Shown in pieces: positions 29,698 to 49,031 of a stretch of 64,000 bases of DNA (the first letter of the stretch is position 1; each line of letters starts with the position of its first letter). The notes under the pieces were generated by a model. That model was not told where the DNA came from. It did no database searches and saw only the letters and a program-made list of their open reading frames with translations. The position numbers and the translations under genes are program-made. Location of the stretch: the NCBI RefSeq assembly GCF_041886205.1, contig NZ_CP169029.1, one strand, 5' to 3'. This DNA comes from Escherichia coli. Lineage in GTDB: Bacteria > Pseudomonadota > Gammaproteobacteria > Enterobacterales > Enterobacteriaceae.

Positions 29698-31116
29698 TCA
29701 CACTTCCTCTATAAATTCAGGTTCAGTTTGCGGGTAGAAATAACGGTACTGATAATGAATCTGTGCACGGGCTTCTTCCGGGCTGTTAAATTCCCCTACG
29801 CCATACCAACCGAACAGCGCAGCTCCTGCGACGGTCGTTTCGGCATCGTCGAGAACTTTTACCGGAATATCAAGCATATTGGCTTTAATCTGATTCCACA
29901 ATGTGTTGCGACTTCCTCCGCCGACTAACAATAATTCAGAGGCTTTAAAGTGCCCGATTTTTTCCAGCATCTGTAGATTGCGCTGTAATTGCGCGGTTAA
30001 CCCTTCCAGCGCCGCGCGATAGAAATGCCCCCGCGTAGTATTAAGCGTCACTCCTTGCCAGCCAGCGTTCTGACACGACAATAAATCACACTGCATTTTC
30101 ACGCCATCCGCGCCAGGTGCGATCAGACGAGCTTCTTCAATCAACATTTGCCAGGGTGTTTCAGCCGTCCAGAACAGTTTTCTCACCCATTCCAGCACGC
30201 CGGATGCCAGCCATTGCATACCTGGGTTATACAACCCTGCCTGGCTATCCAGTTCGCAGGTGGAACCGGCGTACTGACTTAACAGCGAAGTATCAACCTG
30301 GGCGCTACGGACCATTAAAATTTCCCATGTACCGGAGGAGAGCACTGGTTCATTTTGTTCGGCACCAGCGCCAAAAAGGGCGAACTGGGTATCGTGACCT
30401 GCGGAAATCACCGGTATGCCAACGGGTAAGCCGAGCATTGCTGCGGCGCTGTTCTGTAGCGTACCAATCTGTTCACCCGCTTCCACCAGACGAGGGAAGA
30501 GTCGGCATGGAATACCGGTGGCTTGTAAAATTTGCGGACTGAAATCGCGTTGCTGGATATCCAGCATCTGGCTGGTTCCGGCCATCGTGATATCAGTAGT
30601 GAATTCGCCGGTTAAACGGTGGTTAATCAGCGACGAAATGAAGAGCCAGGCGTGCGCGCGTTCCAGCAGTTGTGGATGATTTTCTTTCAACCACACCAAC
30701 TTATATAACGTATTGAAACTAAAGGCTCCGACGCCAGAAATAGCCTGCAACCGCTGTGCGGAGATTAACCGTTTAATATTGTCCATAACCGCTGCTGTTC
30801 GCGGACATTTCCAGCTAATGATCGGATAGAGCAGATTGCCTTGCTTATCTACCAGAGCGCCATCCACACCAAAGGTGGTGACGGCGATACCGCGGATGTG
30901 GCATTCAGTCAGTTCACTATTGATTTGCCGACAGCAATCAGCAAAGCGTTGCAAAATGGCGTCTAAAGACCACTGGTGCCAGGTGTTGTTTTCCATCGCG
31001 ATATCGCTGGCATTAGGCGTTGAGGCGCGGGCAACAATTTTTCCCTGCCGATTAACCGCGATGGCCCTGACATTGGTCGCGCCACAGTCGAGTACCAGGA
31101 TAACTTCTTGTTTCAT
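29698..31116 (-). CDS. fucK: L-fuculokinase FucK (FGGY family, 472 aa)
   Basis: ATG at 31114-31116 with RBS aggag gives [21 protein letters not shown]; an alternative upstream start at 31146 would give 482 aa. Confidence 0.93.
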
Positions 31117-31224
31117 AATCGCTCCTGCAATATAGCCGGATAACATTGCTTATCCGGCTAACCACTCTTGCTTGTTCAGGCCCGGTAGCCGGAGCGACCG
31201 GGCATCACATCAGGGAGTAATGTA

Positions 31225-33000
31225 TTAACGCTTGTACAACGGACCGTAGTTCTGGCAAGCGCGGTAATCCTGGCCTTCAATATCCATGCCGTGCGCAGCC
31301 CAGGCAGAAGGACGATACACTTTGGTCTCTTCAACGTTGTGCATACATACCGGGATACGCAGCATGGAGGCGAGAGTGATAAAGTCTGCGCCAACGTGGC
31401 CGATGGTCAGAACCCCATGGTTAGCGCCCCAGTTCGCCATTACCGAGTACACATCCGTAAACGGCCCTTTACCGGTGAGGCGCGGTGCAAACCAGGTGGT
31501 TGGCCAGGTTGAGTTGGTGCGTTTGTTGAGGATGTCATGCACATCCTTCGGCAATTCCACGCTCCAGCCTTCCGCGATTTGCAGTACCGGTCCCAGGCCT
31601 TTGATGATATTGACACGGGTCATGGTGAACGGGACGCCGCCTTCGGTAAGGAAGCGGGAAGAGTAACCGCCGCCACGGAAGTATTCGTGGATCGCCGGGC
31701 ACCATTCGGTAGCGGCGAGGCAAGCGTCAGCCTCTTGCTGAGAGATTTTCCAGTGCGGCTTCATCGTCGGGTTACCTTCGCTGTCGCGTTGTTTACAGGA
31801 ACCGTCCAGCGCAGCAGAACCTGAGTTGATCAAATGGATGATGCCGTGTTCTGCCAGTCCGTCGAGTTTATGCCCCGTTACACGCTCAATTGCTTCTGGT
31901 GACCAGTAGGTACGCACATCGGCAAATACCTGAGCGGTGCCGGTGAGCTGGTGACCCATTAGCATTGCCACGCCGTTAAGACTGTCGTTTTCGGTCGCCA
32001 CGACAAAGGGTTCGCGCACGCCATTCCAGTCAAATGAACTGTTGAGGATCGCTTCGGCAGTGTCACCATTGGGATATTGATCGGTCCAGTGGCGTTGTCC
32101 CTGGAAGCCCGCAGCGATGGCGTTGTAGCCAAGTGATTCTTCCACGCGACCAATATCGGCCAGTTTGCTGTTGCCTTGCATCATGTCGCGGATACACATC
32201 GCCATCAGTAAACTTTCGCGCAGAACTGCGCGGCTTTGCTCGGCATTGCGTTGATACTGTTTGTTATTTTCATCTTCGCCGTAGCGGAAGTTTTTATCAG
32301 CCCAGGCCAGCGCCATTTCCAGTTCGGCTTCGTCGTAAATCTTCTGATCGATACGGCGACGCAGTTCGGTCATATCCACCGCCTGGACTTTCATTCCCAG
32401 CCAGGATTCAAAGAAGTTGTGATCAACGATGGAACCAGCGATACCCATCGAAACGCCGCCCAGCGACAGATAGCTTTTACCTTTCATGCTGGCGACTGCC
32501 AAACCGGCGCGGGCAAAGCGCAGCAGTTTTTCTTCAACATCGGCTGGAATCGATGTGTCATCGGCATCCTGAACGTCATGACCGTAAATGGAGAATGCCG
32601 GGATGCCTTTCTGGCTGTGAGCTGCCAGAGCCGCTGCCAGGTAAACAGCGCCGGGACGTTCAGTGCCGTTAAAGCCCCAAATGGCTTTCGGGCGGGTTGG
32701 ATCCATGTCGATGGTTTCACTGCCATAGCACCAGCAAGGCGTTACCGTAATGGTGAGGCCTACATTCTGGCTGCTGAATTTTTCTTCGCAAGCAGCGGCT
32801 TCAGCCATACCCGCGATACAGGTATCGGAAATGACACACTCGACGGCAGCTCCGCAGGCATGGCGCAGTTTCTCGGTCAGCAGTGTGGCCGTGGCTTTCG
32901 CCATATTCATTGTTTGTTCTTCAAGCGACTCACGAACACCCATGCGACGACCGTCAATAACCGGGCGGATACCAATTTTCGGTAACGTATTAATTTTCAT
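31225..33000 (-). CDS. fucI: L-fucose isomerase FucI (591 aa)
   Basis: 591 aa; N-terminus [34 protein letters not shown]; RBS gagga. Confidence 0.95.
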
Positions 33001-33082
33001 CAGGATTCCTCATCTCGCTTTATTGGCGCTCTGCTAAGGCGGAGAAAGGAAACCACCGAAGCAGTAGTATTGGTCATTATTT

Positions 33083-33098
33083 GCTAACTCGAGTTAGC
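33083..33098. promoter_or_regulatory. perfect 16-bp palindrome GCTAACTCGAGTTAGC (copy 1), candidate LacI-family operator, about 83 bp upstream of the fucI start
   Basis: Read directly from sequence; the central CG and the 16-bp twofold symmetry are typical of LacI/GalR-family operators. Confidence 0.55.
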
Positions 33099-33321
33099 TT
33101 AGGTTTGTAGGCTTTTTATGCACAACTTTTTTGTTGTTGAAATGTGAGGGGCTTCACGAGAAGTGGTTAAAATACGATCTCTGTCAAATTATTATTTAGC
33201 GGGAGAAAAATAAATTTTACGTATAATCATATGGTTATTAGATTTTAATGGTTATGCATCACAGTTTTAACTCAAATGATTTGGCTAATTTGTATACCTA
33301 AAATAGCTTTAAAAGGCGATC

Positions 33322-33337
33322 GCTAACTCGAGTTAGC
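33322..33337. promoter_or_regulatory. perfect 16-bp palindrome GCTAACTCGAGTTAGC (copy 2), candidate operator about 133 bp upstream of the ABC transporter ATG
   Basis: Identical to copy 1, 239 bp away; a consensus TATAAT hexamer lies at 33222-33227 on the plus strand between the two copies. Confidence 0.55.
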
Positions 33338-33469
33338 AAAATGCGAAGAATAGATTGATGCGATGAATATTTATTCAAAGGTTATTCGTATCACAGTGGA
33401 GATGGCTTTAGTAGCGACGTTTATGCCGTACTTCACATTTTCAGTTTCTGATTATTGAGGAAAGCTGCA

Positions 33470-34969
33470 ATGTCCGAAACATTTTTGCAAATGAAGCATA
33501 TCACCAAACGCTTTCCTGGAGTGTTGGCGCTTAATGACGTGCAATTTTCCCTACGCCGGGGCGAGGTTCATGCATTATTAGGTGAAAATGGTGCAGGAAA
33601 ATCTACCTTAATGAAAATTTTGTCGGGGGTTTATCAACCTGATGAAGGCGAAATAATTTTTGAAGATAAACCAGTCTCATTTTCTGATCCGTTAAGTGCG
33701 CAAAACGTAGGTATTACTATTATTCACCAGGAATTTAATTTATTTCCCGAGCTTACAGTAGAAGAAAATATTTTTATCGGCAGGGAGTTTTGTAAAAAAA
33801 ATCGCTGGCGTCTGGATGAAAAACAGCAACGCCAGGCGACGATTGAAATTTTGCAAAAATTAAATTTGGCGATCAAACCAGATACTCTGGTTGCCGACCT
33901 TACGGTAGCTCAGCAGCAGATGGTAGAAATTGCCAAGGCCATTTCAGTTAACGCCAGGATTCTCATTATGGATGAACCTACTGCGGCGTTAACAGAAACT
34001 GAAATTGAAAGCTTATTTCGCGTCACCCGGTTATTGAAAGAGCAGGGGACCGGCATTGTTTATATCTCCCACCGTCTGGAAGAGTTGGCGCTAATTGCCG
34101 ACCGTGCGACTGTAATGCGTGATGGTCAGTACATCAGCACGGTGGATTATGAGTGCGTAAAAATCAGCGATCTGATTGCCATGATGGTTGGTCGCGATTT
34201 AGGGAATATCTATCCCCGCCGCGAGGCCTTGCAGCAGCGGATTCCGGTTCTGGAGGTAAACGGACTGACGCGCAAAGGCGTCCTGAACGATATTAATTTT
34301 ACGCTTTATCGTGGCGAGATCCTCGGCTTTGCCGGACTGATGGGCGCGGGGCGTACTGAACTTGCGCGTGCGATTTTTGGTGCGGATTCTATTGACAGCG
34401 GAACGCTAAAATTAAATGGTAAGGAAACCGTTATTAAAGATATTTCGGATGCTATTCAGCAGGGAATTAGTTACCTGACGGAAGACCGCAAAAAAGAAGG
34501 GCTGGCGCTGAATTTATCTGTTGAACGAAATATTATGTTAGGAAACTACCCTGAATATTCCGATCGTTTTGGGAATGTCGATTCGCGTCGTTGCCAACAA
34601 ACCAGTGAGGAACAGGTAAAAGCGTTAAGGATTAAAACGCCAAATCTTGAACAGGCGGCATTAAATCTAAGTGGAGGAAACCAGCAGAAAATTATAATTG
34701 CACGTTGGGTGTGTAAAGATACTGATATTTTAATCTTCGATGAACCCACTCGCGGCATTGATGTTGGCGCCAAACTGGAAATCTATGAGTTAATGAATCG
34801 CCTGGTGGCAAAAGGGAAATCAATCATCATGATCTCCTCTGAATTGCCTGAGGTGTTAGGAATGTGCGACCGTATTTTAGTGATGCGCAGTGGTCGAATT
34901 ACCGGCGAACTTAGCGCAAAAGAAGCGACACAAGAAAAAATTATGCAATACGCGACGTTAGAGGATTAA
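33470..34969 (+). CDS. sugar ABC transporter ATP-binding protein with two fused ABC domains (CUT2 family, RbsA/MglA-like), ~499 aa
   Basis: ATG 33470 preferred over TTG 33455 (RBS gaggaaag); Walker A GENGAGKST, signature LSGGNQQK in the second half, and total length indicate a duplicated ABC ATPase. Confidence 0.9.
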   Translation: MSETFLQMKHITKRFPGVLALNDVQFSLRRGEVHALLGENGAGKSTLMKILSGVYQPDEGEIIFEDKPVSFSDPLSAQNVGITIIHQEFNLFPELTVEENIFIGREFCKKNRWRLDEKQQRQATIEILQKLNLAIKPDTLVADLTVAQQQMVEIAKAISVNARILIMDEPTAALTETEIESLFRVTRLLKEQGTGIVYISHRLEELALIADRATVMRDGQYISTVDYECVKISDLIAMMVGRDLGNIYPRREALQQRIPVLEVNGLTRKGVLNDINFTLYRGEILGFAGLMGAGRTELARAIFGADSIDSGTLKLNGKETVIKDISDAIQQGISYLTEDRKKEGLALNLSVERNIMLGNYPEYSDRFGNVDSRRCQQTSEEQVKALRIKTPNLEQAALNLSGGNQQKIIIARWVCKDTDILIFDEPTRGIDVGAKLEIYELMNRLVAKGKSIIMISSELPEVLGMCDRILVMRSGRITGELSAKEATQEKIMQYATLED

Positions 34970-34972
34970 ATT

Positions 34973-35956
34973 ATGACTATCTCTGTAACCTCTCCAGACA
35001 GTAATAATAAGAAAATAAAGATAAATAAAGAACTTTTGATGCGTCTTGCGCCTCTTTTTAGCTTAATTATATTAGTGCTGTTTTTTAGTTTCAGCTCTCC
35101 CTTTTTCTTTAATACCGAAAATATCATGACGATTGCTCTGCAAACGTCGGTTATCGGCATTATGGCCATTGGGGTAACTTTCGTCATTATTACCGCGGGC
35201 ATCGATCTTTCATTGGGCTCCGTGGTGGCTTTTTCTGGTGTCGCCGTGGGGATTTGCGCCACACTGGGCCTGCCGCTGCCAGTGTGTATTATTGCCGGTG
35301 TTTTAGCCGGTGGAATGTGCGGCTATGTGAATGGTTTGTTGGTCACTAAAATGACCATTCCACCATTTATCGCTACCTTGGGCCTGATGATGTCCGTCAG
35401 AGGTATCAATATGGTGATGACCGACGGGCGCGCCATCTATTTTGCCGATTACCCGATGTTCAAAACGCTCGCTCAGGGACGCTTATTTGATGTGCTGCCT
35501 TATCCTGTTTTCTACCTTGTCATTGTAGCGCTTGTCGGCGCTTACATCCTGAAGAAAACCGTCATTGGTCGCTATGTCTATGCCGTAGGCAGTAATGAAG
35601 TTGCTGCTCATCTTTCTGGTATTAAAGTTCAGCGCGTGAAAATTTTCGTCTATGCCTTCTGTGGATTATTAACGGGGATTGCAGGTGTCATTCTGGCATC
35701 TCGTCTCAACTCCGGACAACCGACGGTAGGTGTGGGTTATGAACTGGAAGCTATTGCCGCGGTAGTGATTGGCGGAACCAGCTTAATGGGCGGTATTGGC
35801 ACTATTGGCGGCACAATCATTGGCGCTTTCATTATGAGTGTACTGAAAAATGGCCTCAATTTAATGGGCGTCTCCCAGTTCTGGCAAATGGTCGCGATGG
35901 GCGTCGTTGTGGTCGCTGCCGTTTACCTCGATACATTACGCAAAAAGATTCGTTGA
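34973..35956 (+). CDS. sugar ABC transporter permease (RbsC/AraH-like, 327 aa)
   Basis: Polytopic membrane protein; ATG 4 nt after the ATPase stop with RBS gagga. Confidence 0.88.
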   Translation: MTISVTSPDSNNKKIKINKELLMRLAPLFSLIILVLFFSFSSPFFFNTENIMTIALQTSVIGIMAIGVTFVIITAGIDLSLGSVVAFSGVAVGICATLGLPLPVCIIAGVLAGGMCGYVNGLLVTKMTIPPFIATLGLMMSVRGINMVMTDGRAIYFADYPMFKTLAQGRLFDVLPYPVFYLVIVALVGAYILKKTVIGRYVYAVGSNEVAAHLSGIKVQRVKIFVYAFCGLLTGIAGVILASRLNSGQPTVGVGYELEAIAAVVIGGTSLMGGIGTIGGTIIGAFIMSVLKNGLNLMGVSQFWQMVAMGVVVVAAVYLDTLRKKIR

Positions 35957-36029
35957 CTTAGGCTCCCTGTTTTATCGGGAAACAACTGCCCTGACGTTAA
36001 GGGTGATTCACTCAGAACGGAGTACAACA

Positions 36030-36980
36030 ATGAAAACCAGGCATTTTATCTATGCGTTATCTCTGCTGGCTTGCGTAAGTTCCAGCGCACTGGCGAAGGA
36101 TTTAAATCTTCCGGTTGTTAGTAAAGGTTTCCAACATGAATTCTGGCAAACCGTAAAAATGGGGACTGAAGCTGCGGCTAAAGAGTTGGGGGATAAAACC
36201 AGCTATGTTGGCCCGGCTGATGAAACGCAAATAGCCGAGCAAATTCAGTTAGTCGAAAATGCGATGGCGCAGAAACCGAATGGCTTGCTTCTGGCAGCCC
36301 TCGACGCGAATGCGCTCGCCCCACTGGTAGAAACGGCAAATTCACGCGGTATCAAAGTGGTGACCTTTGATTCAGGCATCAATTCAGACATTCCGGTGAG
36401 TTTTGTCGCCACCAATAACCGTAAAGCAGGTGCTCAGGCAGCTGATGCCTTAGCCTCGCAGGTAAATAATAAAGGGAAAGTTGGGATTATCGCGCACGTT
36501 GCAGGAACATCTTCCGCTATTGAACGCTCGGAAGGCTTCATGGAGCGTATGAAAGAAAAATATCCTGACATTAAAGTCTTACCCGTTCAGTACAGCGATG
36601 GTGACCCGCAAAAAGCGATGGATAAAACTATCGATATGATTCAGGCCAATCCCGATCTTGCTGGGATCTATGGCACCAATGAAGGTTCAACGCTCGGGGT
36701 GGCGAATGCCATTGATAGCCAGAATCTGAAAGGTAAGGTGAAGGTCATTGGTTTTGATAGTACGGAAGCGATTATTAACTTCCTGAAGAACGGCGTCATT
36801 CAGGGCTTTGTTGTTCAGGATGCATACCAGATTGGCTATCAAGGGATCAAAACGTTGAACGCGGCCCTTTCGGGGCAAGCCGTTGAAAAAGAGATCGATA
36901 TTCCCGTGAAATTTGTTAATGCCGAGAATATTAACACGCCAGAAATCGACAAACTCCTGCACCCATTCGGTAAGAAATAA
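36030..36980 (+). CDS. periplasmic sugar-binding protein (RbsB-like, type I PBP fold), ~316 aa
   Basis: Internal ATG at 36030 gives MKTRHFIYALSLLACVSSSALA, a signal peptide; the track ORF upstream extension overlaps the permease and lacks signal-peptide character. Confidence 0.88.
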   Translation: MKTRHFIYALSLLACVSSSALAKDLNLPVVSKGFQHEFWQTVKMGTEAAAKELGDKTSYVGPADETQIAEQIQLVENAMAQKPNGLLLAALDANALAPLVETANSRGIKVVTFDSGINSDIPVSFVATNNRKAGAQAADALASQVNNKGKVGIIAHVAGTSSAIERSEGFMERMKEKYPDIKVLPVQYSDGDPQKAMDKTIDMIQANPDLAGIYGTNEGSTLGVANAIDSQNLKGKVKVIGFDSTEAIINFLKNGVIQGFVVQDAYQIGYQGIKTLNAALSGQAVEKEIDIPVKFVNAENINTPEIDKLLHPFGKK

Positions 36981-37032
36981 AAAATTGGGGATGAATTTTC
37001 ATCCCCGTTATCTCCAGCGTCAGGGAGGCTTT

Positions 37033-38613
37033 ATGCACAACGGTTATTTTCTCGGTGTCGATGTCGGATCGGCCAGTGTCAGGGCAGGCGTTTACAGTGC
37101 CAGTGGCCACAGGCTGGCATTCGCTACTGCGCCCGTCTCCCAGTTTCGCCCTGGCGGCGAGCGTGTCGAACAGTCTTCGGCAGAGATCTGGCAACAAGTT
37201 TGTAAAACGGTGAAAGAGGCGACAGCTTTGGCAGGCATCCCCATTTCCGCAATTCGCTCACTGGGTTTTGACGCTACCTGCTCGCTGGTTGTTCTTGATG
37301 AACAAGGCCAGGGTTTAGCGGTTTCGTCCGGTGGATCTGCGAATCACGACATTATTATGTGGATGGATCATCGTGCAACTGTCGAGACGGCGCAGATTAA
37401 CGCAATGAAGGATCCCGCATTGCGCTACGTTGGCGGCGAAGTGAGCGTCGAGATGGAGTTACCAAAGTTACGTTGGTTGAAGACGCATCTACCGCAAACC
37501 TGGCAGGCCGCTCATCGCTTTTTCGATCTGGCGGATTTTCTGGTCTGGAAAGCAACAGGGCGAGACGTCGCGGGATTATGCACGCTAACGTGTAAATGGA
37601 ATTATCTAGCTCATGAGCAACGCTTTAGCCATAGCTTACTGGAATCGATAGACCTGACCGATATGCTTGAAAGAATTCCTGCCAACATTCTTCCGCCTGG
37701 CGCTGCCGTGGGAACGTTAACCGCCACAGCTGCTGAAGAGTTAGGATTAACGACTAATGTTATCGTGGCCAGTGGCTTGATTGATGCCCATGCCGGTGGC
37801 GTGGCGCTGGCTGGCGCTCACCCATCAGGAACGCTGGCATTGATAAGCGGAACGTCGAACTGCCATATGCTGTGTAGTGAAAAAGAGATATTCACCCCTG
37901 GCGTCTGGGGGCCATACTGGTCGGCCATGTTGCCAAATTACTGGCTAACCGAAGGCGGGCAAAGCGCCGCAGGGGCGCTGGTGGAGTGGACGCTTCAGGA
38001 GTCAGGGGCAAGCGCAAATCTTTTTCACAAGGCGCAGCAACGCGGATGTCATCCGATTCAACTGATTAATGAATGGGTAGCAGCCCTTGAAGCTAACGAG
38101 TCAGAACCCACACGAAATTTACATGTGCTTGCCGATCATCACGGCAACCGTTCGCCACGAGCGCGGCCCGATGCCAGAGGCAGTGTTTATGGCTTAACAC
38201 TGGAGCGTGGTGAAAATCAGCTCGCGCGACTTTATCTTGCGACTTTACAGGCAATAGCCTTTGGCACCAGACATATTATTGAAACTCTGCGGGAAAATGG
38301 GCATACCATTACCCGATTAACATTATGTGGTGGTGCAACGCACAACCCTTTATGGCTACGCGAATATGCAGACGTGACAGGTTGCGATATCCACCTGATG
38401 CAAGAAGAAGATGCCGTTACGTTGGGCGCAGCAATTAGCGGCGCTGTTGCCAGCGGAGCATGGGGGGATTTTACATCTGCGTGTAAAGCAATGGTTGAAG
38501 CCGGAGAGATTATTCAGGTAAATCCACAACGCCGTGAATTTTTAGAGCGTAAATACCGGGTTTACCTGACGCTTTGGGAGCAACAACAGGCGGTTAACCA
38601 ACTGATGCAATAA
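37033..38613 (+). CDS. FGGY-family carbohydrate kinase, pentulose-kinase-like subgroup (~526 aa)
   Basis: Internal ATG at 37033 (RBS cagggagg) gives MHNGYFLGVDVGSASVRAGVY, the FGGY N-terminal motif; GTSNCHM motif mid-protein; the track ORF start at 36913 overlaps the binding-protein gene. Confidence 0.87.
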   Translation: MHNGYFLGVDVGSASVRAGVYSASGHRLAFATAPVSQFRPGGERVEQSSAEIWQQVCKTVKEATALAGIPISAIRSLGFDATCSLVVLDEQGQGLAVSSGGSANHDIIMWMDHRATVETAQINAMKDPALRYVGGEVSVEMELPKLRWLKTHLPQTWQAAHRFFDLADFLVWKATGRDVAGLCTLTCKWNYLAHEQRFSHSLLESIDLTDMLERIPANILPPGAAVGTLTATAAEELGLTTNVIVASGLIDAHAGGVALAGAHPSGTLALISGTSNCHMLCSEKEIFTPGVWGPYWSAMLPNYWLTEGGQSAAGALVEWTLQESGASANLFHKAQQRGCHPIQLINEWVAALEANESEPTRNLHVLADHHGNRSPRARPDARGSVYGLTLERGENQLARLYLATLQAIAFGTRHIIETLRENGHTITRLTLCGGATHNPLWLREYADVTGCDIHLMQEEDAVTLGAAISGAVASGAWGDFTSACKAMVEAGEIIQVNPQRREFLERKYRVYLTLWEQQQAVNQLMQ

Positions 38614-38677
38614 GACAAAAGTTGAAAATACTTTTATGATTGTGATTTGACGTCTGGATGTTAACTGGGAAATACCT

Positions 38678-39676
38678 ATGGCTAAAACAGTAGAGCAGAT
38701 AGCCAGCGACCTGAATTTATCGGTTACGACCGTGCGACTGGTGCTAAATGGAAAAGCGGAACAATATCGAATCAGCGTCAAAACCCAAACGCGTATCAAT
38801 GAATATGTTGAACGCTATGGTTATATCATTAATCATTCCGCTCGCAGCCTTAAGCTTAACAAAACTGATACATTAGGGTTGATTGTTCCCAACATATCCA
38901 ACGTCTTTTTTGCTACGCTGGCAGAAAAACTCGAACAACGCTGTCGACGTTCCGGATATCAACTTACAATCAGTTGCACTTATGATGATGTTGACTATGA
39001 AAATAAATTGACGAAAGCATTTATCGCACGAAATGTAGATGGTCTTTTTATTGTTCCTTCGACGCTGGAAAATCAGCAGCATCATTTACGCAAAATTCGT
39101 AAGCCCATGGTTTTACTCGATCGTGATTTTAAATATACCGATAACGCATTGGTAGAGAGTAATAATATTTCTGGCGGAGAAAAGCTGACGCAAAATATTC
39201 TTGAGGCCGGGCAGACTCCAGTATGGTTTTTGCTGGGAGATGCCGGTTTGCCGAGTATCAGCGATCGTCTGACAGGTTATTTGAATGCGTTGGCAAAAAA
39301 AGGGATTACCCATCGCGATTGGGTGCGGGAAGGTCCGGTAAATACTCCGGAAGGCGGCTATGTCATTATGGAAAAACTCATTGAAGAGCAGGGATGTCCG
39401 CAGGCATTTATCGCCTCGTCTTTGCCTGTGCTTGAAGGCGCTGTCCGCGCGATTCGCGACCGTCTTGGCGCTGTACCGCCAGAAATCAATATTGGCACTT
39501 TCGATGAACATCCTATGCTGGGATTTCTCGCCAACAATGTCTGGTCAATGCAGCAGGATGAAAATGCCTGGGCAGAAAAAGCGTTCGAAATGATGTTAAG
39601 CGCGATCGAAGAAAGACCAGTCAAAAAAACAGTTAAAGTAGAAATGAAATTAATTAAGCGCATAAGAAAAAAATAA
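38678..39676 (+). CDS. LacI/GalR-family transcriptional regulator (332 aa)
   Basis: N-terminal HTH region followed by a periplasmic-binding-protein-like sugar-binding fold (LGLIVPNISNVFFATLAEKLE). Confidence 0.88.
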   Translation: MAKTVEQIASDLNLSVTTVRLVLNGKAEQYRISVKTQTRINEYVERYGYIINHSARSLKLNKTDTLGLIVPNISNVFFATLAEKLEQRCRRSGYQLTISCTYDDVDYENKLTKAFIARNVDGLFIVPSTLENQQHHLRKIRKPMVLLDRDFKYTDNALVESNNISGGEKLTQNILEAGQTPVWFLLGDAGLPSISDRLTGYLNALAKKGITHRDWVREGPVNTPEGGYVIMEKLIEEQGCPQAFIASSLPVLEGAVRAIRDRLGAVPPEINIGTFDEHPMLGFLANNVWSMQQDENAWAEKAFEMMLSAIEERPVKKTVKVEMKLIKRIRKK

Positions 39677-39808
39677 TAATCGCCAAAAGATATCAGGCTA
39701 CTGAACAATGATATTCAGTGGCCTCCCCTTACTAAAAATAACCCCGTCTTCATTTGCGGTGCTGTTTTACGCAACAAGGCGAGCTGAAACTGTATCTGGA
39801 GAATAGAA

Positions 39809-40456
39809 ATGGAAAGAACACGTTTATCCCGTGAAATAATTGAAACCTGTCTGGAAATGACGCGCCTTGGGTTAAATCAGGGGACAGCGGGGAATGTCAG
39901 CACACGTTTTGAAAACGGCATGTTGATTACTCCCAGCGGTATTCCTTATGAAAGAATGACGGAGAATATGATTGTCTATGTTGATGGCAACGGCAAATAC
40001 GAAGAAGGTAAGATTCCTTCCAGCGAGTGGCGTTTCCATATGGCAGCCTATCAAAGCAGACCGGATGCCAACGCGGTTGTTCACAATCATGCCGTTCATT
40101 GCACGGCAGTTTCCATTCTTAACCGACCGATCCCCGCTATTCACTACATGATTGCGGCGGCGGGCGGTAATTCTATTCCTTGCGCGCCTTATGCGACCTT
40201 TGGAACACGTGAACTTTCTGAACATGTTGCGCTGGCTCTCAAAAATCGTAAGGCAACTTTGTTACAACATCATGGGCTTATCGCTTGTGAGGTGAATCTG
40301 GAAAAAGCGTTATGGCTGGCGCATGAAGTTGAAGTGCTGGCGCAACTTTACCTGACGACCCTGGCGATTACGGACCCGGTGCCAGTGCTGAGCGATGAAG
40401 AGATTGCCGTAGTGCTGGAGAAATTCAAAACCTATGGGTTACGGATTGAAGAGTAA
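39809..40456 (+). CDS. fucA: L-fuculose-phosphate aldolase (class II aldolase, 215 aa); N-terminal ~70 residues appear divergent from the K-12 allele
   Basis: 215 aa; residues from about 75 onward (SSEWRFHMAAYQSRPDANAVVHNHAVHCTAVSIL...KFKTYGLRIEE) match E. coli FucA as recalled; the N-terminal part carries many substitutions. Confidence 0.9.
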   Translation: MERTRLSREIIETCLEMTRLGLNQGTAGNVSTRFENGMLITPSGIPYERMTENMIVYVDGNGKYEEGKIPSSEWRFHMAAYQSRPDANAVVHNHAVHCTAVSILNRPIPAIHYMIAAAGGNSIPCAPYATFGTRELSEHVALALKNRKATLLQHHGLIACEVNLEKALWLAHEVEVLAQLYLTTLAITDPVPVLSDEEIAVVLEKFKTYGLRIEE

Positions 40457-40483
40457 TTTCGTAAAGCAACAAGGAGAAGGATG

Positions 40484-41632
40484 ATGGCTAACAGAATGAT
40501 TCTGAACGAAACGGCATGGTTTGGTCGGGGTGCTGTTGGGGCTTTAACCGATGAGGTGAAACGCCGTGGTTATCAGAAGGCGCTGATCGTCACCGATAAA
40601 ACGCTGGTGCAATGCGGCGTGGTGGCGAAAGTGACCGATAAGATGGATGCGGCAGGGCTGGCATGGGCGATTTACGACGGCGTAGTGCCCAACCCAACAA
40701 TTACTGTCGTCAAAGAAGGGCTCGGTGTATTCCAGAATAGCGGCGCGGATTACCTGATTGCTATTGGTGGTGGTTCTCCACAGGATACTTGTAAAGCGAT
40801 TGGTATTATCAGCAACAACCCGGAATTTGCCGATGTGCGTAGCCTGGAAGGACTTTCCCCGACCAATAAACCCAGTGTACCGATTCTGGCAATTCCCACC
40901 ACAGCAGGCACTGCGGCAGAAGTGACCATTAACTACGTGATCACTGACGAAGAAAAACGGCGCAAGTTTGTTTGCGTTGATCCGCATGATATCCCGCAGG
41001 TGGCGTTTATTGACGCTGACATGATGGATGGTATGCCTCCAGCGCTGAAAGCTGCGACGGGTGTCGATGCGCTCACTCATGCTATTGAGGGGTATATTAC
41101 CCGTGGCGCGTGGGCGCTAACCGATGCGCTGCACATTAAAGCGATTGAAATCATTGCTGGGGCGCTGCGAGGATCGGTTGCTGGTGATAAGGATGCCGGA
41201 GAAGAAATGGCGCTCGGGCAGTATGTTGCGGGTATGGGCTTCTCGAATGTTGGCTTAGGGTTGGTGCATGGTATGGCGCATCCACTGGGCGCGTTTTACA
41301 ACACTCCACACGGTGTTGCGAACGCCATCCTGTTACCGCATGTCATGCGCTATAACGCTGACTTTACCGGTGAGAAGTACCGCGATATCGCGCGCGTTAT
41401 GGGCGTGAAAGTGGAAGGTATGAGCCTGGAAGAGGCGCGTAATGCCGCTGTTGAAGCGGTGTTTGCTCTCAACCGTGATGTCGGTATTCCGCCACATTTG
41501 CGTGATGTTGGGGTACGCAAGGAAGACATTCCGGCACTGGCGCAGGCGGCACTGGATGATGTTTGTACCGGTGGCAACCCGCGTGAAGCAACGCTTGAGG
41601 ATATTGTAGAGCTTTACCATACCGCCTGGTAA
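40484..41632 (+). CDS. fucO: L-1,2-propanediol oxidoreductase / lactaldehyde reductase (iron-containing alcohol dehydrogenase, 382 aa)
   Basis: MANRMILNETAWFGRGAVGALTDEVKRRGYQKALIVTDK; RBS aaggaga; second of two adjacent ATGs preferred. Confidence 0.94.
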   Translation: MANRMILNETAWFGRGAVGALTDEVKRRGYQKALIVTDKTLVQCGVVAKVTDKMDAAGLAWAIYDGVVPNPTITVVKEGLGVFQNSGADYLIAIGGGSPQDTCKAIGIISNNPEFADVRSLEGLSPTNKPSVPILAIPTTAGTAAEVTINYVITDEEKRRKFVCVDPHDIPQVAFIDADMMDGMPPALKAATGVDALTHAIEGYITRGAWALTDALHIKAIEIIAGALRGSVAGDKDAGEEMALGQYVAGMGFSNVGLGLVHGMAHPLGAFYNTPHGVANAILLPHVMRYNADFTGEKYRDIARVMGVKVEGMSLEEARNAAVEAVFALNRDVGIPPHLRDVGVRKEDIPALAQAALDDVCTGGNPREATLEDIVELYHTAW

Positions 41633-41650
41633 ATGCGCTGATGTGATAAT

Positions 41651-41683
41651 GCCGGATACGACGCTAGCCGCGTCTTATCCGGC
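41651..41683. repeat. REP-like palindromic element (gccggatacgacg / cgtcttatccggc) downstream of fucO
   Basis: Read directly from sequence between convergent fucO and xni; matches the E. coli REP family pattern GCCGGATA...TATCCGGC. Confidence 0.6.
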
Positions 41684-41736
41684 ATATAAGTGCATTAAAT
41701 TCAATGTGTTGATAATCGTTTGCATACGGCACGTCG

Positions 41737-42603
<867 letters not shown>

Positions 42604-43971
42604 TTAATCGCAGGCAACGATCTTCATTGCCAGGCCGCCGCGAGAGGTTTCGCGGTACTTGGCGTTCATATCTTTACCTGTTTCGTACATGGTTTCGATA
42701 ACTTTATCGAGGCAGACGCGCGGCTCGCTGGTACGGCGCAGCGCCATACGTGCGGCGTTCACCGCTTTTACTGCCGCAATGGCGTTACGCTCGATGCATG
42801 GCACCTGGACCTGTCCGGCGACCGGGTCACACGTCAGACCGAGGTTGTGCTCCATGGCGATTTCCGCCGCGATGCACACCTGCGCCGGGCTTGCGCCTAA
42901 TAGTTCTGCCAGACCAGCCGCCGCCATTGAGCACGCCACGCCAACTTCACCCTGGCAACCCACTTCAGCACCAGAAATCGACGCGTTCATCTTATAAAGA
43001 GAACCAATGGCGCTGGCTACCAGCAGGTAACGAGCCAGTGAGTTAGCGTTCACTTCGCGGATAAACTTATCGTAGTACGCCAGCACAGCCGGGATAATCC
43101 CGCACGCACCGTTAGTCGGCGCAGTCACCACGCGACCGCCAGCGGCGTTCTCTTCGTTCACTGCCAGTGCAAACATGTTGATCCAGTCAACAACCGCCAT
43201 CGGGTCAGTGGTGGTTTTATCCTGGCTGACCAGCATCCGGCGTAGTGCCGCAGCACGGCGTGGAACGCGCAGTTTGCCAGGCAACACGCCTTCGGTGGAA
43301 ATACCGCGCTCAATACCGCCACGCATGACTTCCCAGACGTTCGCCAGGTGCTGTTCCAGCTCTTCTTTGCTGTGCAGCGCCAGCTCGTTTTTCATCATCA
43401 GGCCAGAGAGTGACAGCCCGGTTTCCTGACAATGTTTTTGCAGATCGGCTGCTGAACTGTACGGATAAGGAACTTCAACCGGTGCGCTATCCTGCTGGCC
43501 AAAATGCTCTTCATCAACGATAAAGCCACCGCCAATAGAGTAGTAAGTCTGGCTGTAAACGACTTTATCGCCCGCCAGCGCGGTAATGCGCATACCGTTT
43601 TCATGCAGAGAAAGGTTGTCTGCATGGAAGTTCATGCACTGATCAACCGGGAACTCCACTTCATGCTGACCGTTTGCCAGCATCAGGCGACCATGAGTAT
43701 TCACATCCTGAATAAAACCGGGGATGGAATCGATATCCACGGTATCCGGCAGGTTACCCGCCAGGCCCATAATAATGGCGATATCAGTGTGGTGGCCTTT
43801 ACCAGTCAGAGAGAGCGAGCCGTACACGTCAACCACCACGCGGGTCACGTCTTTAAGCAGGTTACGGGCAATCAGATCGTCGGTAAATTGTTTACCCGCT
43901 TTCATTGGTCCAACGGTATGAGAACTGGAAGGGCCAATGCCGATTTTGAAAATATCGAATACGCTAATCAT
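42604..43971 (-). CDS. sdaB: L-serine dehydratase 2 (iron-sulfur, 455 aa)
   Basis: 455 aa; N-terminus MISVFDIFKIGIGPSSSHTVGPMKAG; downstream of sdaC as in E. coli. Confidence 0.95.
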   Translation of the reverse strand: MISVFDIFKIGIGPSSSHTVGPMKAGKQFTDDLIARNLLKDVTRVVVDVYGSLSLTGKGHHTDIAIIMGLAGNLPDTVDIDSIPGFIQDVNTHGRLMLANGQHEVEFPVDQCMNFHADNLSLHENGMRITALAGDKVVYSQTYYSIGGGFIVDEEHFGQQDSAPVEVPYPYSSAADLQKHCQETGLSLSGLMMKNELALHSKEELEQHLANVWEVMRGGIERGISTEGVLPGKLRVPRRAAALRRMLVSQDKTTTDPMAVVDWINMFALAVNEENAAGGRVVTAPTNGACGIIPAVLAYYDKFIREVNANSLARYLLVASAIGSLYKMNASISGAEVGCQGEVGVACSMAAAGLAELLGASPAQVCIAAEIAMEHNLGLTCDPVAGQVQVPCIERNAIAAVKAVNAARMALRRTSEPRVCLDKVIETMYETGKDMNAKYRETSRGGLAMKIVACD

Positions 43972-44028
43972 AGGAAATACATCGCGTTAAAACGGAGGAA
44001 GCGCCGCCCGAAAGCGGCGCGAAAGGAC

Positions 44029-45318
44029 TTAGCTGAACAGAGAGTAGAAGATTGCGGAGATTGCAATCAGACCCATCACGACAACGAATACGTTGCTGAT
44101 GTGACCGCTGTACTTACGCATTGCCGGTACTTTCTGAATTGCGTACATCGGCATCAGGAACAGGATCATCGCGATGATTGGGCCGCCCAGGGTTTCAATC
44201 ATACCCAGGATGCTCGGGTTCAGGGTGGCAACAATCCAGGTCGTTACCAGCATGAACAGCGCAGTGATACGGTTCAGCTTGTTGATTTCGATAGACTTAC
44301 CTTTACCACGCAGAGATTTAATCACCATACCGTTGAAGCCTTCACGTGCGCCCAGGTAGTGGCCGAGGAAGGATTTGGTGATAGCGATAATCGCGATAAT
44401 CGGAGCCATCCACGCGATAACCGGTGCGTTAAAGTGGTTAGCCAGGTAAGACAGAATCGAGATGTTCTGCTCTTTAGCCGCAGCCAGGTCCGCCGGAGTC
44501 AGGCTCAGTACGCAGCTGAAGACGAAGAACATTACGGTCAGCACCATCATGATGTGTGCGAATGCCAGGATCTTCGAGCATTTCTGTTCTGCCATATCGC
44601 CGTACTCTTCACGCTTCGCAACGGCGAAAGAAGAGATGATCGGAGAGTGGTTGAACGAGAACACCATTACCGGAATTGCCAGCCACAGGGTCATCCACAG
44701 ACCGTTTCCGGTTGCAGATGCAGTGTCCAGAGACAGCGTTTCCAGTGCTGCGCCGTTCCACTGCGGGATGAGGTACAGAGCCAGCAGCATCAGTACGCCA
44801 ACAAACGGGAATACCAGAATACTCATCGCTTTAACGATCATCTGCTCACCGAAGCGAACGATGGTCATCATACCCACGATCAGGATCAGCGACAGAATCG
44901 CACGCGGCGGTGGCGTCATACCCAGCTGGTGAGACATGAAGCTTTCAACGGTATTGGTGATTGCCACGCTATAAACCAGCAGGATCGGGTAGATAGCGAA
45001 GAAGTAGAGCAGGGTAATCAGTTTACCTGCGCCAATACCAAAGTGTTCTTCTACAACCTCGGTGATGTCTTCGCCCGGGTTTTTACCAGACAGTACGAAG
45101 CGAGTCAGGCCGCGGTGAGCAAAAAACGTCATCGGGAACGCAAGGATAGCCATGATGATCAGCGGGATCATACCGCCAACACCGGCGTTGATTGGCAGGA
45201 ACAGCACGCCCGCGCCGATTGCCGTGCCGTAAAGGCCCAGCATCCACATGGTGTCTGTCTTGCGCCAGGCACTACGAGAGTCTTTCGACGCAATCGTGCT
45301 GGTTTGAGTCGTTTCCAT
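44029..45318 (-). CDS. sdaC: serine:H+ symporter SdaC (HAAAP family, 429 aa)
   Basis: 429 aa polytopic membrane protein; [46 protein letters not shown]. Confidence 0.95.
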
Positions 45319-45874
45319 CTATTTCTCCTGGAGGAATGCAAATAATTCAGCTTTTAGCCAGTTCAGCCCGGGAAGGTGCCTGACCGTAAAAATGAAATCT
45401 GTCTATCGGCGATGGCTTAATCATTTACCGCCGTAATAATTTGAGGGCGGAAAGATACACACAAGTTATGTATCTATCAGTGATCTTGATCCCAAATACA
45501 ATAATCTACTTGGAAGATAGATTATCCCAACGCTTTACTCTGTAAATCAAAAGTAAAAGAGAATTTAAGGGCAATATTTGCCCATTAAACGACATCTGAC
45601 TTCTTCCGGGGCGCGCAATATATGTAGGTTGAACTGAAAAAATCAATACTTTTAGTTAATCATGGCGATAATTTCTTTTTCATAGCGATAAAATACGGTT
45701 TATGAAAATAGGGAAACGTTTGCGTTGCAATATAAATTGTATGACATATTAACTATGATGATATTTGTCGCGTGAGGGTGGTAAGAAACATTTATATAAC
45801 AAATGAAATGAGTTGATGAGTAAGTGACCAAAAACGAGAAAACCCGGCAACAAACGTCACCGGGGGAGGGGAGA

Positions 45875-47239
45875 TTACGTGCAGATTTCGTAGCAAGGGA
45901 TGTAGGCTGAGCCTGGCAACTTCATACGATGCTGGGCAACAAAACCCTGTAGCAGGTCGTCCATACGACGCATAATCTCTTTATCGCCGTTGATTTTGTA
46001 AGGACCAAACTCTTCAATGGCGCGAATACCGACTTCTTTTACGTTACCCGCCACAATACCGGAGAACGCACGGCGCAGGTCGGCAGCCAGCACTTCAACA
46101 GGTTGATCCGGGTAAAGCTTCAGATTAGCCATATTCTCGTGAGACGGCTCAAACGGCATTTGCAAATCTGGCGCAATGCGCATTGACCAGTTAAAGCTGT
46201 AGGCATCGCCTGTATCACGGCGATTTTCTTTCACCAGCGGCATCGATTTTTTCATCTGACGAGCGACTTCAGCGGCGTCATCAATGATGATGCGGTAATG
46301 GCGGCGCGCGTTTTCGCCCAGCGTATGTACGACAAACTCGTCCAGTACGCGGAAGTAGTCGGCGCTCTCTTTCGGGCCGGTGAGGATCAATGGTAAAACC
46401 TGATCTTTGTTGGCCGGGTTCATTAAAATTCCCAGCAAATACAGCAACTCTTCTGCCGTACCCACACCGCCAGGGAAGATAATGATGCCGTGAGCGATAC
46501 GGACAAACGCTTCCAGACGTTTTTCGATATCCGGCATGATGATCAATTCGTTGACCAGCGGGTTAGGCGGTTCAGCGGCGATAATCGACGGCTCTGTCAT
46601 ACCAATAAAACGACTGTCTTTGTAACGCTGCTGCGCGTGTCCGACCGCAGCACCTTTCATCGGCGCTTCCATCGCTCCCGGACCACAGCCGGTGCAGATA
46701 TTCAGCTCACGCAGGCCCAGCTGGTTTCCGACGCGACGGGCATACAAATACTCATTTTCGTTAATTGAGTGACCGCCCCAGCAGACCACCATATTTGGCG
46801 CTTCACCCACATGCAGCGCGCGAGCGTTACGCAAGATGGAAAAGACCAGGTTAGTGATGTGGACGGAGTTGTCGAGATTCAGGTTGGGAAAACGAACGGT
46901 ATTATGGATTTGCCCGTAAACGAAGAGAATGTCTCGCAGAACCGCGAACAAGTTGGCCTGCAAAGCGCGAATAATTCGCCCATCGACAAAAGCCTCTTCC
47001 GGGGGATTAATCAGTTCCAGCTTTACGCCGCGTTCACGGCGCAGGACGTTAATATCGAAATTTTCAAAACGAGACAGCAATTCTTTGCTGTTATCGGTCA
47101 AACTACCGGAGTTCAGTACGGCAAGTGAACAGTTGCGAAACAGTTGATAGAGGTCGCTGCTGGCGGTGCGTTTAAGCATATCCACTTCCAGCTGCGACAA
47201 CATATCCATGGAGCCAAGCGGGCTAATATGTGTAATCAA
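45875..47239 (-). CDS. ppnN: pyrimidine/purine nucleotide 5'-monophosphate nucleosidase PpnN (LOG family, 454 aa)
   Basis: 454 aa; order queF-ppnN-sdaC-sdaB on one strand matches E. coli. Confidence 0.93.
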
Positions 47240-47350
47240 GAAAAACTCCTTATGGGACGAATATCGTCATTCCCTTTGATTACAATAGCCCTGCCTGATG
47301 ACCTTTCACAACCTTCTGCGTGAATCCAGCACGCAAAATTGAGAAAAAAT

Positions 47351-48199
47351 TTATTGCCGAACCAGTCTTGTGGTCGATGGGACAAAATCGCTATTACTGC
47401 GCCACGGGTTAATGTCCAGACCGCCACGACGGGTATAACGTGCGTAAACGCTTAATTTCTCTGGCTGGCAGAAGCGTAACAGGTCATTAAAGATGCGTTC
47501 CACGCACTGTTCGTGGAACTCGTTGTGATGACGGAATGAGACCAGGTAACGCAGCAGTTTTTCTCTGTCAATTTGGCGTCCACGATACTGAATTTGGATC
47601 GAACCCCAATCTGGTTGATGGGTGATCAGGCAGTTTGATTTCAGCAGGTGGCTGACAAGCGTCTCTTCCACTACTTTTTCACCGCTGGTGGCATTCTCCA
47701 GATAGTCAGTAGTGAATTCATAGTTATCGATAGTGATATCCTGGTCATCAATGCAGGTGCCATTGAAATGACCTATCGGCTGGCCTTCCAGTTCATCAAG
47801 ACGATATAACGCCACGCTAACCTTACCCTGGGCGCAAGTGCTTAAGTCGCGCTCCAGCGTCTGGCGCACCTCATCCCAGTTATTAAAACGCGTCTGGTTA
47901 AAACTGTTGAGATAGAGCTTAAAACTCTTCGACTCAATCAGATTTGCGCTGGTGTAATCAAGTTCAACGTGACCGACGGCAACCTGCGGCAAACCTTTCG
48001 CATTCAGCCAGGAAAGTTCATACAGCGTCCAGATATCCGTACCGTGAAAAGGCAGGTTACCCGCTTTCAGACCCAGCGGGTCGCGATTCAGGCTGCGTGG
48101 AACGCCTTGCAGTAGGCTGGCGTCATAGGTATCCCGGTAATCGGTTGATTTTCCAAGAGTCAGGCCCGCAAGTGCCTGATGGTTTGCATAAGAAGACAT
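47351..48199 (-). CDS. queF: NADPH-dependent 7-cyano-7-deazaguanine reductase QueF (282 aa)
   Basis: 282 aa two-domain QueF type; [35 protein letters not shown]. Confidence 0.94.
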
Positions 48200-48266
48200 G
48201 TTTCACCGTCATAAACCAGATAAACTAAACGACAAGTGTATCTGGTTTAAGTGAAGAGAAAAATTA

Positions 48267-48812
48267 GTGGACGATTTGACCGCACAAGCCCTGAAAGATT
48301 TTACTGCACGCTACTGCGATGCGTGGCATGAAGAGCATAAAAGCTGGCCGTTAAGTGAGGAACTGTACGGTGTTCCTTCACCGTGCATTATTTCAACTAC
48401 CGAAGATGCCGTATACTGGCAACCCCAGCCGTTTACCGGGGAACAAAATGTAAACGCGGTTGAACGCGCTTTTGATATTGTGATACAACCCACAATTCAT
48501 ACCTTTTATACGACTCAGTTTGCCGGGGATATGCACGCGCAGTTTGGCGATATCAAACTGACATTGCTGCAAACCTGGAGTGAAGACGACTTCCGTCGGG
48601 TGCAGGAAAATCTGATTGGTCATCTGGTGACTCAGAAAAGGCTAAAACTGCCGCCCACGCTATTTATCGCGACGCTGGAAGAAGAGTTAGAGGTCATCTC
48701 GGTGTGTAATCTCTCCGGTGAAGTGTGCAAAGAGACGCTGGGAACACGTAAACGGACGCATTTAGCCTCAAATCTTGCGGAATTCCTTAATCAACTTAAG
48801 CCTCTTCTGTAA
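48267..48812 (+). CDS. syd: SecY-interacting protein Syd (181 aa)
   Basis: 181 aa; located immediately upstream of csrB as in E. coli. Confidence 0.92.
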
Positions 48813-48831
48813 TCCAAATACCCCATCTGGT

Positions 48832-48849
48832 TGTGAGAGATCTCTTACA
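48832..48849. promoter_or_regulatory. UvrY/SirA response-regulator binding box TGTGAGAGATCTCTTACA upstream of csrB
   Basis: 18-bp near-perfect palindrome read directly from sequence about 180 bp upstream of the csrB 5' end; matches the known BarA-UvrY target site of csrB. Confidence 0.65.
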
Positions 48850-49031
48850 GACTCTGTAGGAGATCGCCAGGAAATAAGCGAATACTTAAAAAGATAAGAA
48901 TCGTTATTTTCATTTAAAATCAAAATGTTGATTGTTAATTCTTAACTTTCATATGAAATTTTCCTTAAGGCATTGTCTGTAAGCGCCTTGTAAGACTTCG
49001 CGAAAAAGACGATTCTATCTTCGTCGACAGG

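Follow-up and report, generated by a model that had tools for sequence, protein, structure and literature searches.

In Escherichia coli K-12, the fuc regulon consists of fucPIKUR and fucAO, both activated by FucR and CRP. Here, the control elements of fucAO have been mapped (PMC11011485). The promoter PfucAO has its transcription start at -63, a -35 element reading TTGtgA and a -10 element reading aATtAa. The operators OCrp2, OCrp3, OFucR2 and OFucR3 all lie within 270 bp upstream of fucA, and the FucR motif has the core CGG[TG]CA.

Between fucA and fucI, E. coli B carries additional genes for the use of D-arabinose, and the ability to grow on D-arabinose without mutation has been reported for both REL606 and BL21(DE3) (PMC6150544, PMC3446290). 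A 1994 paper on this cluster is cited in PMC12307932 and PMC10221146. Saif et al. (2023, PMC10221146) described a fucose operon, "Variant 2", in which fucP is replaced by an ABC transporter; they found it in BL21, in 50 of 1058 E. coli genomes, and in 3 of 40 isolates (7.5%). A term search of their paper finds no mention of a promoter, of recombination or of a mosaic fucA. A fucose ABC transporter, FucABC, clustered with the fuc genes in Enterobacter, was also predicted by Ravcheev & Thiele (2017, PMC5583593). The substrate predicted for the transporter is L-fucose in two of these sources (PMC10221146, PMC5583593), but D-arabinose in a metabolic model of BL21 (PMC6150544).

An FGGY-family D-ribulokinase likewise accompanies an ABC transporter in the Rbl D-ribulose locus of Citrobacter rodentium (PMC12307932). 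That locus, however, has another genomic context and belongs to a different clade. It is set apart by that paper's own analysis, in which DarK in the fuc context represents a separate clade of Escherichia D-ribulokinases.

The subject of this work is a stretch of 64,000 nucleotides of E. coli DNA (contig NZ_CP169029.1), which we call the window. Its fuc locus occupies the same chromosomal site as the K-12 regulon, with the gene order gcvA-ygdD-rlmM-fucRUKI ... fucAO-xni-sdaBC. In an alignment to K-12 W3110, window positions 25926-33012 have an aligned identity of 98.98%, and positions 39830-50682 are 98.1% identical. Between them, the homology ends at 33012 and restarts at 39830, with 1903 bp of K-12 exchanged for 6817 bp in the window. 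The K-12 piece consists of fucP, the 546-bp intergenic region between fucP and fucA, and the first 21 nt of fucA. The window piece encodes a ribose-type ABC transporter, an FGGY pentulose kinase and a LacI-family regulator (Table 1). Around it, identity to K-12 is 98-100% in fucI, fucK, fucU, fucR, fucO and the last two-thirds of fucA. On the left, the form-specific segment has its edge at the start of fucI, where codons 3-5 (32986-32993) place MKINT in the window against MKKIS in K-12.

Table 1. Features of the fuc locus in the window, in window coordinates.
Feature	Position	Strand	Remarks
fucI (L-fucose isomerase)	31225..33000	-	98-99% K-12-like except codons 3-5 and nt 108
IG1, divergent control region between fucI and the ABC-transporter operon	33001..33469	.	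blocks conserved across Escherichia and Citrobacter
O1, perfect 16-bp palindrome GCTAACTCGAGTTAGC, candidate LacI-family operator	33083..33098	.	fucI side
CRP-like site TGTGAggggctTCACG	33143..33158	.	conserved in Escherichia and Citrobacter A-form loci; consensus per PMC11011485
O2, identical palindrome GCTAACTCGAGTTAGC, candidate operator	33322..33337	.	transporter side, 239 bp from O1
sugar ABC transporter ATP-binding protein, ribose/xylose-type	33470..34969	+	two ATPase domains
ABC transporter permease	34973..35956	+	
periplasmic sugar-binding protein	36030..36980	+	
FGGY-family pentulose kinase, matches DarK (D-ribulokinase)	37033..38613	+	TIGR01315 531 bits, cutoff 408.7
LacI-family regulator	38678..39676	+	nearest FruR/RbsR group, under every equivalog cutoff
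IG2, spacer between LacI-family gene and fucA	39677..39808	+	132 bp
conserved inverted repeat/hairpin 1	39695-39724		11-bp perfect stem in the window, 18 nt past the stop codon, no T-run
conserved inverted repeat/hairpin 2	39745-39781		
ribosome-binding site GGAGAA of fucA	39798-39803		
fucA	39809-40456	+	132 bp after the LacI-family gene
form-specific 5' part of fucA	39809..40027	+	
junction zone in fucA	40021..40127	+	
3' part of fucA (to 40456) and fucO (40481-41632)	40028..41632	+	common E. coli sequence, 99% identical to K-12

An earlier, sequence-only reading of this DNA had proposed that the native regulatory region between fucA and fucP is largely replaced. It is wholly absent. Compared with the K-12 regulon, the window has lost fucP and the 546-bp control region, and with it PfucAO, OCrp2/3 and OFucR2/3 as mapped in PMC11011485. 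A short-word blastn search for similarity between IG1 or IG2 and the K-12 fucP-fucA intergenic region returns only chance 6-9-mers. The same reading had counted 132 bp from the stop of the LacI-family gene (39676) to the fucA ATG (39809), and this number is confirmed.

This segment is the known L-fucose/D-arabinose (darK) cluster of E. coli B, and this form of the locus is already known and ordinary. Over its 6817 bp it is 99.9% identical to the B strains C2566, BL21 and BL21 Star. Gene content and gene order are the same as in the darK cluster of E. coli B/BL21, the kinase has the same protein sequence as its BL21 counterpart (WP_000551482.1) and corresponds to DarK of the E. coli B D-arabinose pathway, and the window holds the same variant as the Variant 2 fucose operon (PMC10221146). 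In what follows, the A form denotes fucRUKI divergent from genes for an ABC transporter, the DarK D-ribulokinase and a LacI-family regulator, followed by fucA and fucO. The P form denotes fucRUKIP divergent from fucAO, as in K-12.

The feature that first drew attention to the locus lies inside fucA. The sequence-only reading had described about 70 N-terminal residues of FucA dense in substitutions relative to K-12, and a protein that is K-12-like from about residue 75. This description was right. FucA of the window differs from K-12 FucA at 19 residues; 18 of these fall in residues 4-69, and the remaining one is S107P. The nucleotide alignment of fucA-fucO with K-12 that it had proposed shows a sharp step. 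In an ungapped comparison of window positions 39809-41632 with K-12 W3110, fucA nt 1-219 hold 59 mismatches (27%), while the other 1605 nt of fucA-fucO hold 17 (1%). Thus, neither uniform identity within fucA nor uniform divergence across fucA and fucO is seen. The maximum chi-square breakpoint falls at fucA nt 219 (window 40027), with chi2 = 323, a value reached by none of 2000 permutations (Fisher p = 1.8e-42). The last fucA site that the carriers of this segment have in common, yet unlike K-12, is nt 213 (40021). The window agrees with K-12 from nt 237 on, and the junction lies at the latest at nt 319 (40127).

The segment is carried by 383 of 5426 complete E. coli genomes (7.1%), in two sequence classes, one at 99% or above (194 genomes) and one at about 98.8% (188 genomes). 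The A-form spacer and 5' part of fucA are present in 383-385 of the 5426, essentially the same set of genomes. Carrier sets so nearly identical mean that the 5' ~219 nt of fucA are inherited together with the genes for the ABC transporter, the kinase and the LacI-family regulator.

The junction after nt 213 is common to nearly all carriers. Recombination between the two forms inside fucA does happen in E. coli, but rarely. In 2014C-3075 and SCU-301, the switch has moved and lies between nt 186 and 190. In 1919D62, which has the fucP form, fucA is a patchwork, of K-12 type at nt 1-42 and 93-162 and of the ABC type at nt 54-87 and 170-636.

Relatives were scanned with the regulator protein as query, taking one genome per species. 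The order fucRUKI divergent from transporter-(kinase)-regulator-fucA-(fucO) was found in E. whittamii, in about 13 Citrobacter species, and in Pluralibacter, Enterobacter hormaechei, Lelliottia, Huaxiibacter, Pseudenterobacter, Atlantibacter, Buttiauxella and others. In E. whittamii and the ~13 Citrobacter species, it lies upstream of xni and sdaB, which is the site in E. coli. The A form is at the same chromosomal site as in E. coli in E. marmotae and Escherichia sp. E4742 as well, and Salmonella has the P (fucP) form at that site. In Enterobacter, Lelliottia, Atlantibacter and Buttiauxella, the A-form gene order is found in a different neighbourhood. The kinase gene is absent from several A-form loci of relatives. 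This means that the conserved core is the transporter plus the regulator, placed between fucI and fucA.

In these relatives, the A form is the usual fuc locus, and the segment has diverged from theirs by about the amount seen in the core genes on its flanks. It is 90-94% identical to its counterpart in E. marmotae (flanks 92-95%), 88-93% to that in E. whittamii (flanks 90-94%), and 71-83% to that in Citrobacter (flanks 78-84%). Between K-12 and Salmonella, fucP is 80% and the 5' part of fucA 79.8% identical, equal to the flanks there. In fucA, divergence was measured separately for nt 1-219 and nt 220-648 (Table 2).

Table 2. Divergence of fucA on the two sides of the step.
Comparison	5' part (nt 1-219)	3' part (nt 220-648)
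window vs E. marmotae	.046	.063
window vs E. whittamii	.100	.098
window vs Citrobacter	.201	.219
K-12 vs E. marmotae	.283	.063
K-12 vs E. whittamii	.297	.098
K-12 vs Citrobacter	.329	.221
K-12 vs Salmonella	.205	.224
window vs Salmonella	.315	.221
window or K-12 vs Atlantibacter	about.27	about.26

A step at about nt 216-219 appears in every comparison of a P-form with an A-form fucA, comparisons between genera included, and is absent within each form. The fucA genes of E. marmotae and E. whittamii do show it, at nt ~219, when they are set against K-12. The window fucA is evenly diverged from its A-form relatives; K-12 fucA is mosaic against them, at the same position. "Mosaic" is, of course, a relative term. 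Against the sister Escherichia species, it is the K-12 gene that is the mosaic one. The protein follows the same lines. Over FucA residues 1-73, the window matches E. marmotae, E. whittamii and E4742 at 72 positions and Citrobacter at about 65, and K-12 matches Salmonella at 67. Because the step is common to comparisons between genera, the boundary in fucA is an old edge between forms, rather than a recent crossover private to one strain.

The window thus quite probably carries the second of two long-standing forms of the enterobacterial fuc locus, whose boundary is old, and in which fucAO would be read from the upstream genes under CRP and a LacI-family repressor. The structural and evolutionary steps of this account are given by the data; its regulatory steps we infer. 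The forms differ from the first fucI codons to about nt 219 of fucA, and homologous recombination within E. coli has made the flanks alike in both. With flanks so homogenised, fucA looks, against K-12, like a divergent 5' third joined to identical 3' two-thirds.

If K-12 were the only reference, one would have concluded instead that a K-12-like fuc locus had recently taken up a foreign module and lost fucP with its control region in the process, with one crossover in fucA and a new, possibly mis-regulated junction. The pattern relative to K-12 is exactly that, and the G+C content of the segment, 39-47% apart from 0.546 at 37000-37999 (within the kinase gene), is below the 51-55% of its flanks. 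This history is nevertheless most improbable. The layout, the spacer and the 5' part of fucA recur, with divergence at the level of species, in Citrobacter and three further Escherichia species, the fucA boundary is common to comparisons between genera, and within E. coli the segment varies by 1-2%, much as its flanks do. The segment holds no integrase or transposase gene, no repeats at its edges and no tRNA; it has the marks of neither a genomic island nor a mobile-element insertion. Of the earlier suggestion that the 5' part of fucA had arrived on an inserted module, the sharp boundary and the co-inheritance of ~219 nt with the segment stand. The inserted module with its novel junction does not, as E. 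marmotae, E. whittamii, Escherichia sp. E4742 and Citrobacter have the segment at the same site, and the short spacer between the LacI-family gene and fucA, far from being a novel juxtaposition, is the native arrangement of the A form. Relaxed or positive selection acting in place, without recombination, might be suggested by the 18 amino-acid changes clustered in residues 4-69, but can hardly be entertained. Of the first 73 codons, 24 differ from K-12 only synonymously and 18 non-synonymously, which is the mark of a diverged homologue and not of local adaptive change; the 5' stretch is 95.4% identical to that of E. marmotae; the divergence runs unbroken into non-homologous upstream DNA; and patchwork fucA recombinants exist. 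A more serious contender reverses the direction of transfer. Here, the A form would be ancestral in Escherichia, and the P form (fucP with its control region, and fucA up to nt ~219) an immigrant now present in ~93% of E. coli, so that K-12 fucA would be truly mosaic. All of E. marmotae, E. whittamii, Escherichia sp. E4742 and Citrobacter have the A form, K-12 fucA, unlike that of the window, shows a step against them, and the 5' part of K-12 fucA groups with Salmonella. However, identity of ~80% between the P segments of K-12 and Salmonella, as in the flanks, fits long residence in the lineage of E. coli as well as it fits import. Further, the K-12 type of FucA N-terminus is the commoner one in outgroups (Klebsiella, Atlantibacter, Hafnia and Plesiomonas), which match it at 62-64 of 73 residues and the window type at 51-55. 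The Escherichia sample behind this question consists of E. coli, E. marmotae, E. whittamii and Escherichia sp. E4742; a look-up aimed at the FucA of E. albertii and E. fergusonii gave one merged FucA/FucO cluster, in which all names were E. coli or Shigella. We regard an immigrant P form as possible, though somewhat doubtful. Old transfers between lineages would give distances like those of a polymorphism older than the split between genera.

The expression of fucAO in this second form of the locus admits two readings of its own. In Enterobacter, Lelliottia, Huaxiibacter and Pseudenterobacter, the gap between the LacI-family gene and fucA is just 27-30 bp, which implies co-transcription in those four genera. 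Read-through of fucAO from the upstream genes is plausible in the window as well. Here, fucAO would be expressed mainly as the distal part of a transporter-darK-regulator transcript, which would start in IG1 and be governed by CRP and, through the two identical palindromes there, by the LacI-family repressor. The alternative is that fucAO has its own regulated promoter, within the 132-bp spacer or inside the regulator gene at its 3' end, with no read-through and with the inverted repeats serving as protein-binding palindromes or as a terminator. The spacer in Escherichia and Citrobacter is, after all, ~100 bp longer than in the Enterobacter group, and the extra DNA has conserved blocks, which could hold an activator-dependent promoter invisible to a consensus scan; in K-12, too, the fucAO promoter depends on activators and its -35 and -10 elements are poor (PMC11011485). 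A perfect 11-bp hairpin 18 nt past the stop codon points the same way. Against this, scans found no sigma-70 consensus promoter in IG2, and no intrinsic terminator in IG2 or after the LacI-family gene; the first hairpin is without a T-run, and the spacer holds neither a FucR nor a CRP consensus. Among 12 sequences, 92.5% of the cells in the two inverted repeats pair; sliding the partners lowers this to 33-51%. Pairing is kept through several G-U and a few compensatory changes. The covariation is modest, but the pattern fits a transcribed RNA. No Rfam family matched positions 32900-40100 at permissive thresholds, so the spacer hairpins do not belong to a described RNA family. We lean, by a little, towards fucAO as the distal part of the transporter-darK-regulator transcript with hairpins that act on the RNA, and consider a separate fucAO promoter unlikely.

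The candidate control elements of the long transcript lie in IG1. The palindromes O1 and O2 are the sole matches to GCTAACTCGAGTTAGC in the 64 kb, even when 3 mismatches are allowed, where 0.17 would be expected by chance, and both are invariant in Escherichia and Citrobacter. Serratia, Brenneria, Mangrovibacter and Symbiopectobacterium, all of which have homologues of the regulator, carry exact copies just ahead of the kinase gene; in the loci of these distant genera that were checked, the copies lie ~15-90 bp upstream of the kinase gene. The palindromes are probably operators for the LacI-family regulator. The protein itself matches LacI-family models over its full length. The combination is that typical of a LacI/GalR-family repressor, a protein of this type and, in the control DNA of its own genes, a candidate palindrome with CG at its centre. 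In Serratia marcescens L038, where a hint to its ligand was sought, the genes between kinase and regulator are without informative NCBIfam assignments. The arrangement of sites in IG1 would be consistent with divergent CRP-dependent promoters, each repressed from a downstream operator.

FucR presents the reverse picture. The window has neither the core CGG[TG]CA nor a full-core match to the 15-mer consensus in its IG1 and IG2, and the corresponding regions in E. marmotae and Citrobacter are equally free of full-core sites; full-core FucR sites number six in the K-12 intergenic region and six in that of Salmonella. The one site found at positions 25-45 kb of the window, at 31192 between fucK and fucI, is at background level. 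Yet the FucR protein of carriers is identical to that of K-12, and fucR is retained and conserved in the A-form loci of Citrobacter and Escherichia. This retention argues that FucR still acts in A-form loci, despite the failure to find sites for it.

Elsinghorst and Mortlock are said to have found, in 1988, that the fucose enzymes and the D-ribulokinase of E. coli B are co-ordinately controlled. The inducers in E. coli B were reportedly free L-fucose and D-arabinose, and not their 1-phosphates. Induction by free sugars would fit a repressor of the LacI type. A further reading, which we hold to be less likely than not, is that in ~7% of E. coli the whole L-fucose pathway has been rewired, with fucIKUR on one side and transporter-darK-regulator-fucAO on the other. 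Its control would have passed from FucR, an activator that senses fuculose-1-phosphate, to the LacI-family repressor at its two identical operators, leaving FucR without targets at its own locus. The two designs would coexist as an old dimorphism with edges in fucI and fucA. If this is true, the rewiring would be the molecular basis of the induction by free L-fucose and D-arabinose reported for E. coli B.

For those who meet this locus in a new genome, a missing fucP together with a divergent FucA N-terminus is what the second fuc-locus form normally looks like, and points to neither a defect nor a fresh insertion. Strains with the A form are without any mapped control element of K-12 fucAO; thus, what is known of fucose induction in K-12 should not be transferred to them. 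The activation of fucAO by IS5 for propanediol use, a K-12 phenomenon, should likewise not be carried over to A-form strains.

E. coli B strains grow poorly on fucose, which has been attributed to the swap of transporters. An IS1 element, however, sits inside fucA in all 41 B-lineage genomes, and is therefore not specific to one isolate. A fair test of the A form thus needs a strain whose fucA is intact, like that of the window.

The FucA of the window is, by its sequence, an intact and ordinary L-fuculose-1-phosphate aldolase, whose function there appears to be no reason to doubt. It scores 426.7 bits against TIGR01086, the fucA equivalog (cutoff 400.25), and 439 bits against NF005984 (cutoff 264). 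Residues E73, H92, H94, H155 and Y113 are all kept in its translation. Of these, we take H92, H94 and H155 to be the zinc ligands and E73 to be catalytic, following the structural literature on the E. coli enzyme. Among the substitutions, T43S alone falls on a phosphate-binding residue. The same FucA protein (WP_000442593.1) is annotated in all four of the other carrier genomes with the common junction that were inspected.

The genome collection includes 41 members of the B lineage (REL606, BL21(DE3), B, ATCC 11303, C41/C43 and the NEB strains), and in every one of them fucA is interrupted by IS1; the window's fucA carries no IS1. B strains grow poorly or not at all on L-fucose, which has been ascribed to their missing fucP (PMC3446290, PMC10221146). 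A broken aldolase would explain the "L-fucose negative, D-arabinose positive" phenotype of these strains more directly than loss of fucP. When the paper on the BL21 model (PMC6150544) was searched for the term "IS1", there was no hit, and none of the papers in the literature collection searched combined fucA, IS1, BL21 and fucose.

In strain 1919D62, whose locus has the fucP form, fucA is a patchwork of both allele classes. The pattern indicates that short tracts have been converted between sequences with 27% divergence.

The LacI-family regulator and the FGGY kinase, in turn, have homologues that occur together without any fuc context, lying 5-8 kb apart, with the regulators 49-65% identical to that of the window. 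Seven of these loci hold an exact copy of the window's 16-bp palindrome, the regulator's candidate operator; in Serratia, Mangrovibacter and Brenneria, the loci where its position was checked, it lies directly upstream of the kinase gene. Since the homologues pair up outside fuc and the same palindrome is present, the regulator-kinase pair may be an older unit that was later embedded in the fuc locus.

Features of the fuc locus and of the loci compared with it
Feature	Location	Detail
IS1-split fucA, BL21	L061:10797-12221	equivalent window position ~40249, in fucA
Patchwork fucA, 1919D62	L072:8980-9627	K-12 type nt 1-42; ABC type 54-87; K-12 type 93-162; ABC type from 170
Regulator and kinase homologue loci	L036-L060	Serratia, Dickeya, Brenneria, Proteus, Gilliamella, others
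Degraded ABC-form locus, BS-04	L062:6530-8730	
Invariant CGTCTT, spacer	window 39745-39750	
AAGGCG, spacer	window 39776-39781	
fucA ribosome-binding site, GGAGAA	window 39798-39803	
FucR-motif match, fucK-fucI spacer	window 31192-31206	GAGCGACCGGGCATC, 13/15

Within the spacer between the regulator gene and fucA, the CGTCTT of the second hairpin can pair with AAGGCG. In a single-sequence fold it pairs instead with the fucA ribosome-binding site; that this alternative might act as a translational switch is pure speculation. The sole full-core match to the FucR motif between 25 and 45 kb of the window occurs at a frequency no higher than background.

Strain BS-04 holds the ABC-form locus in a degraded version. 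Its only annotated gene between fucI and fucA is a "hypothetical protein," the start region of fucA is altered, and directly 5' of fucA the DNA retains remnants of the spacer and of the 3' end of the regulator gene, approximately 86% identical.
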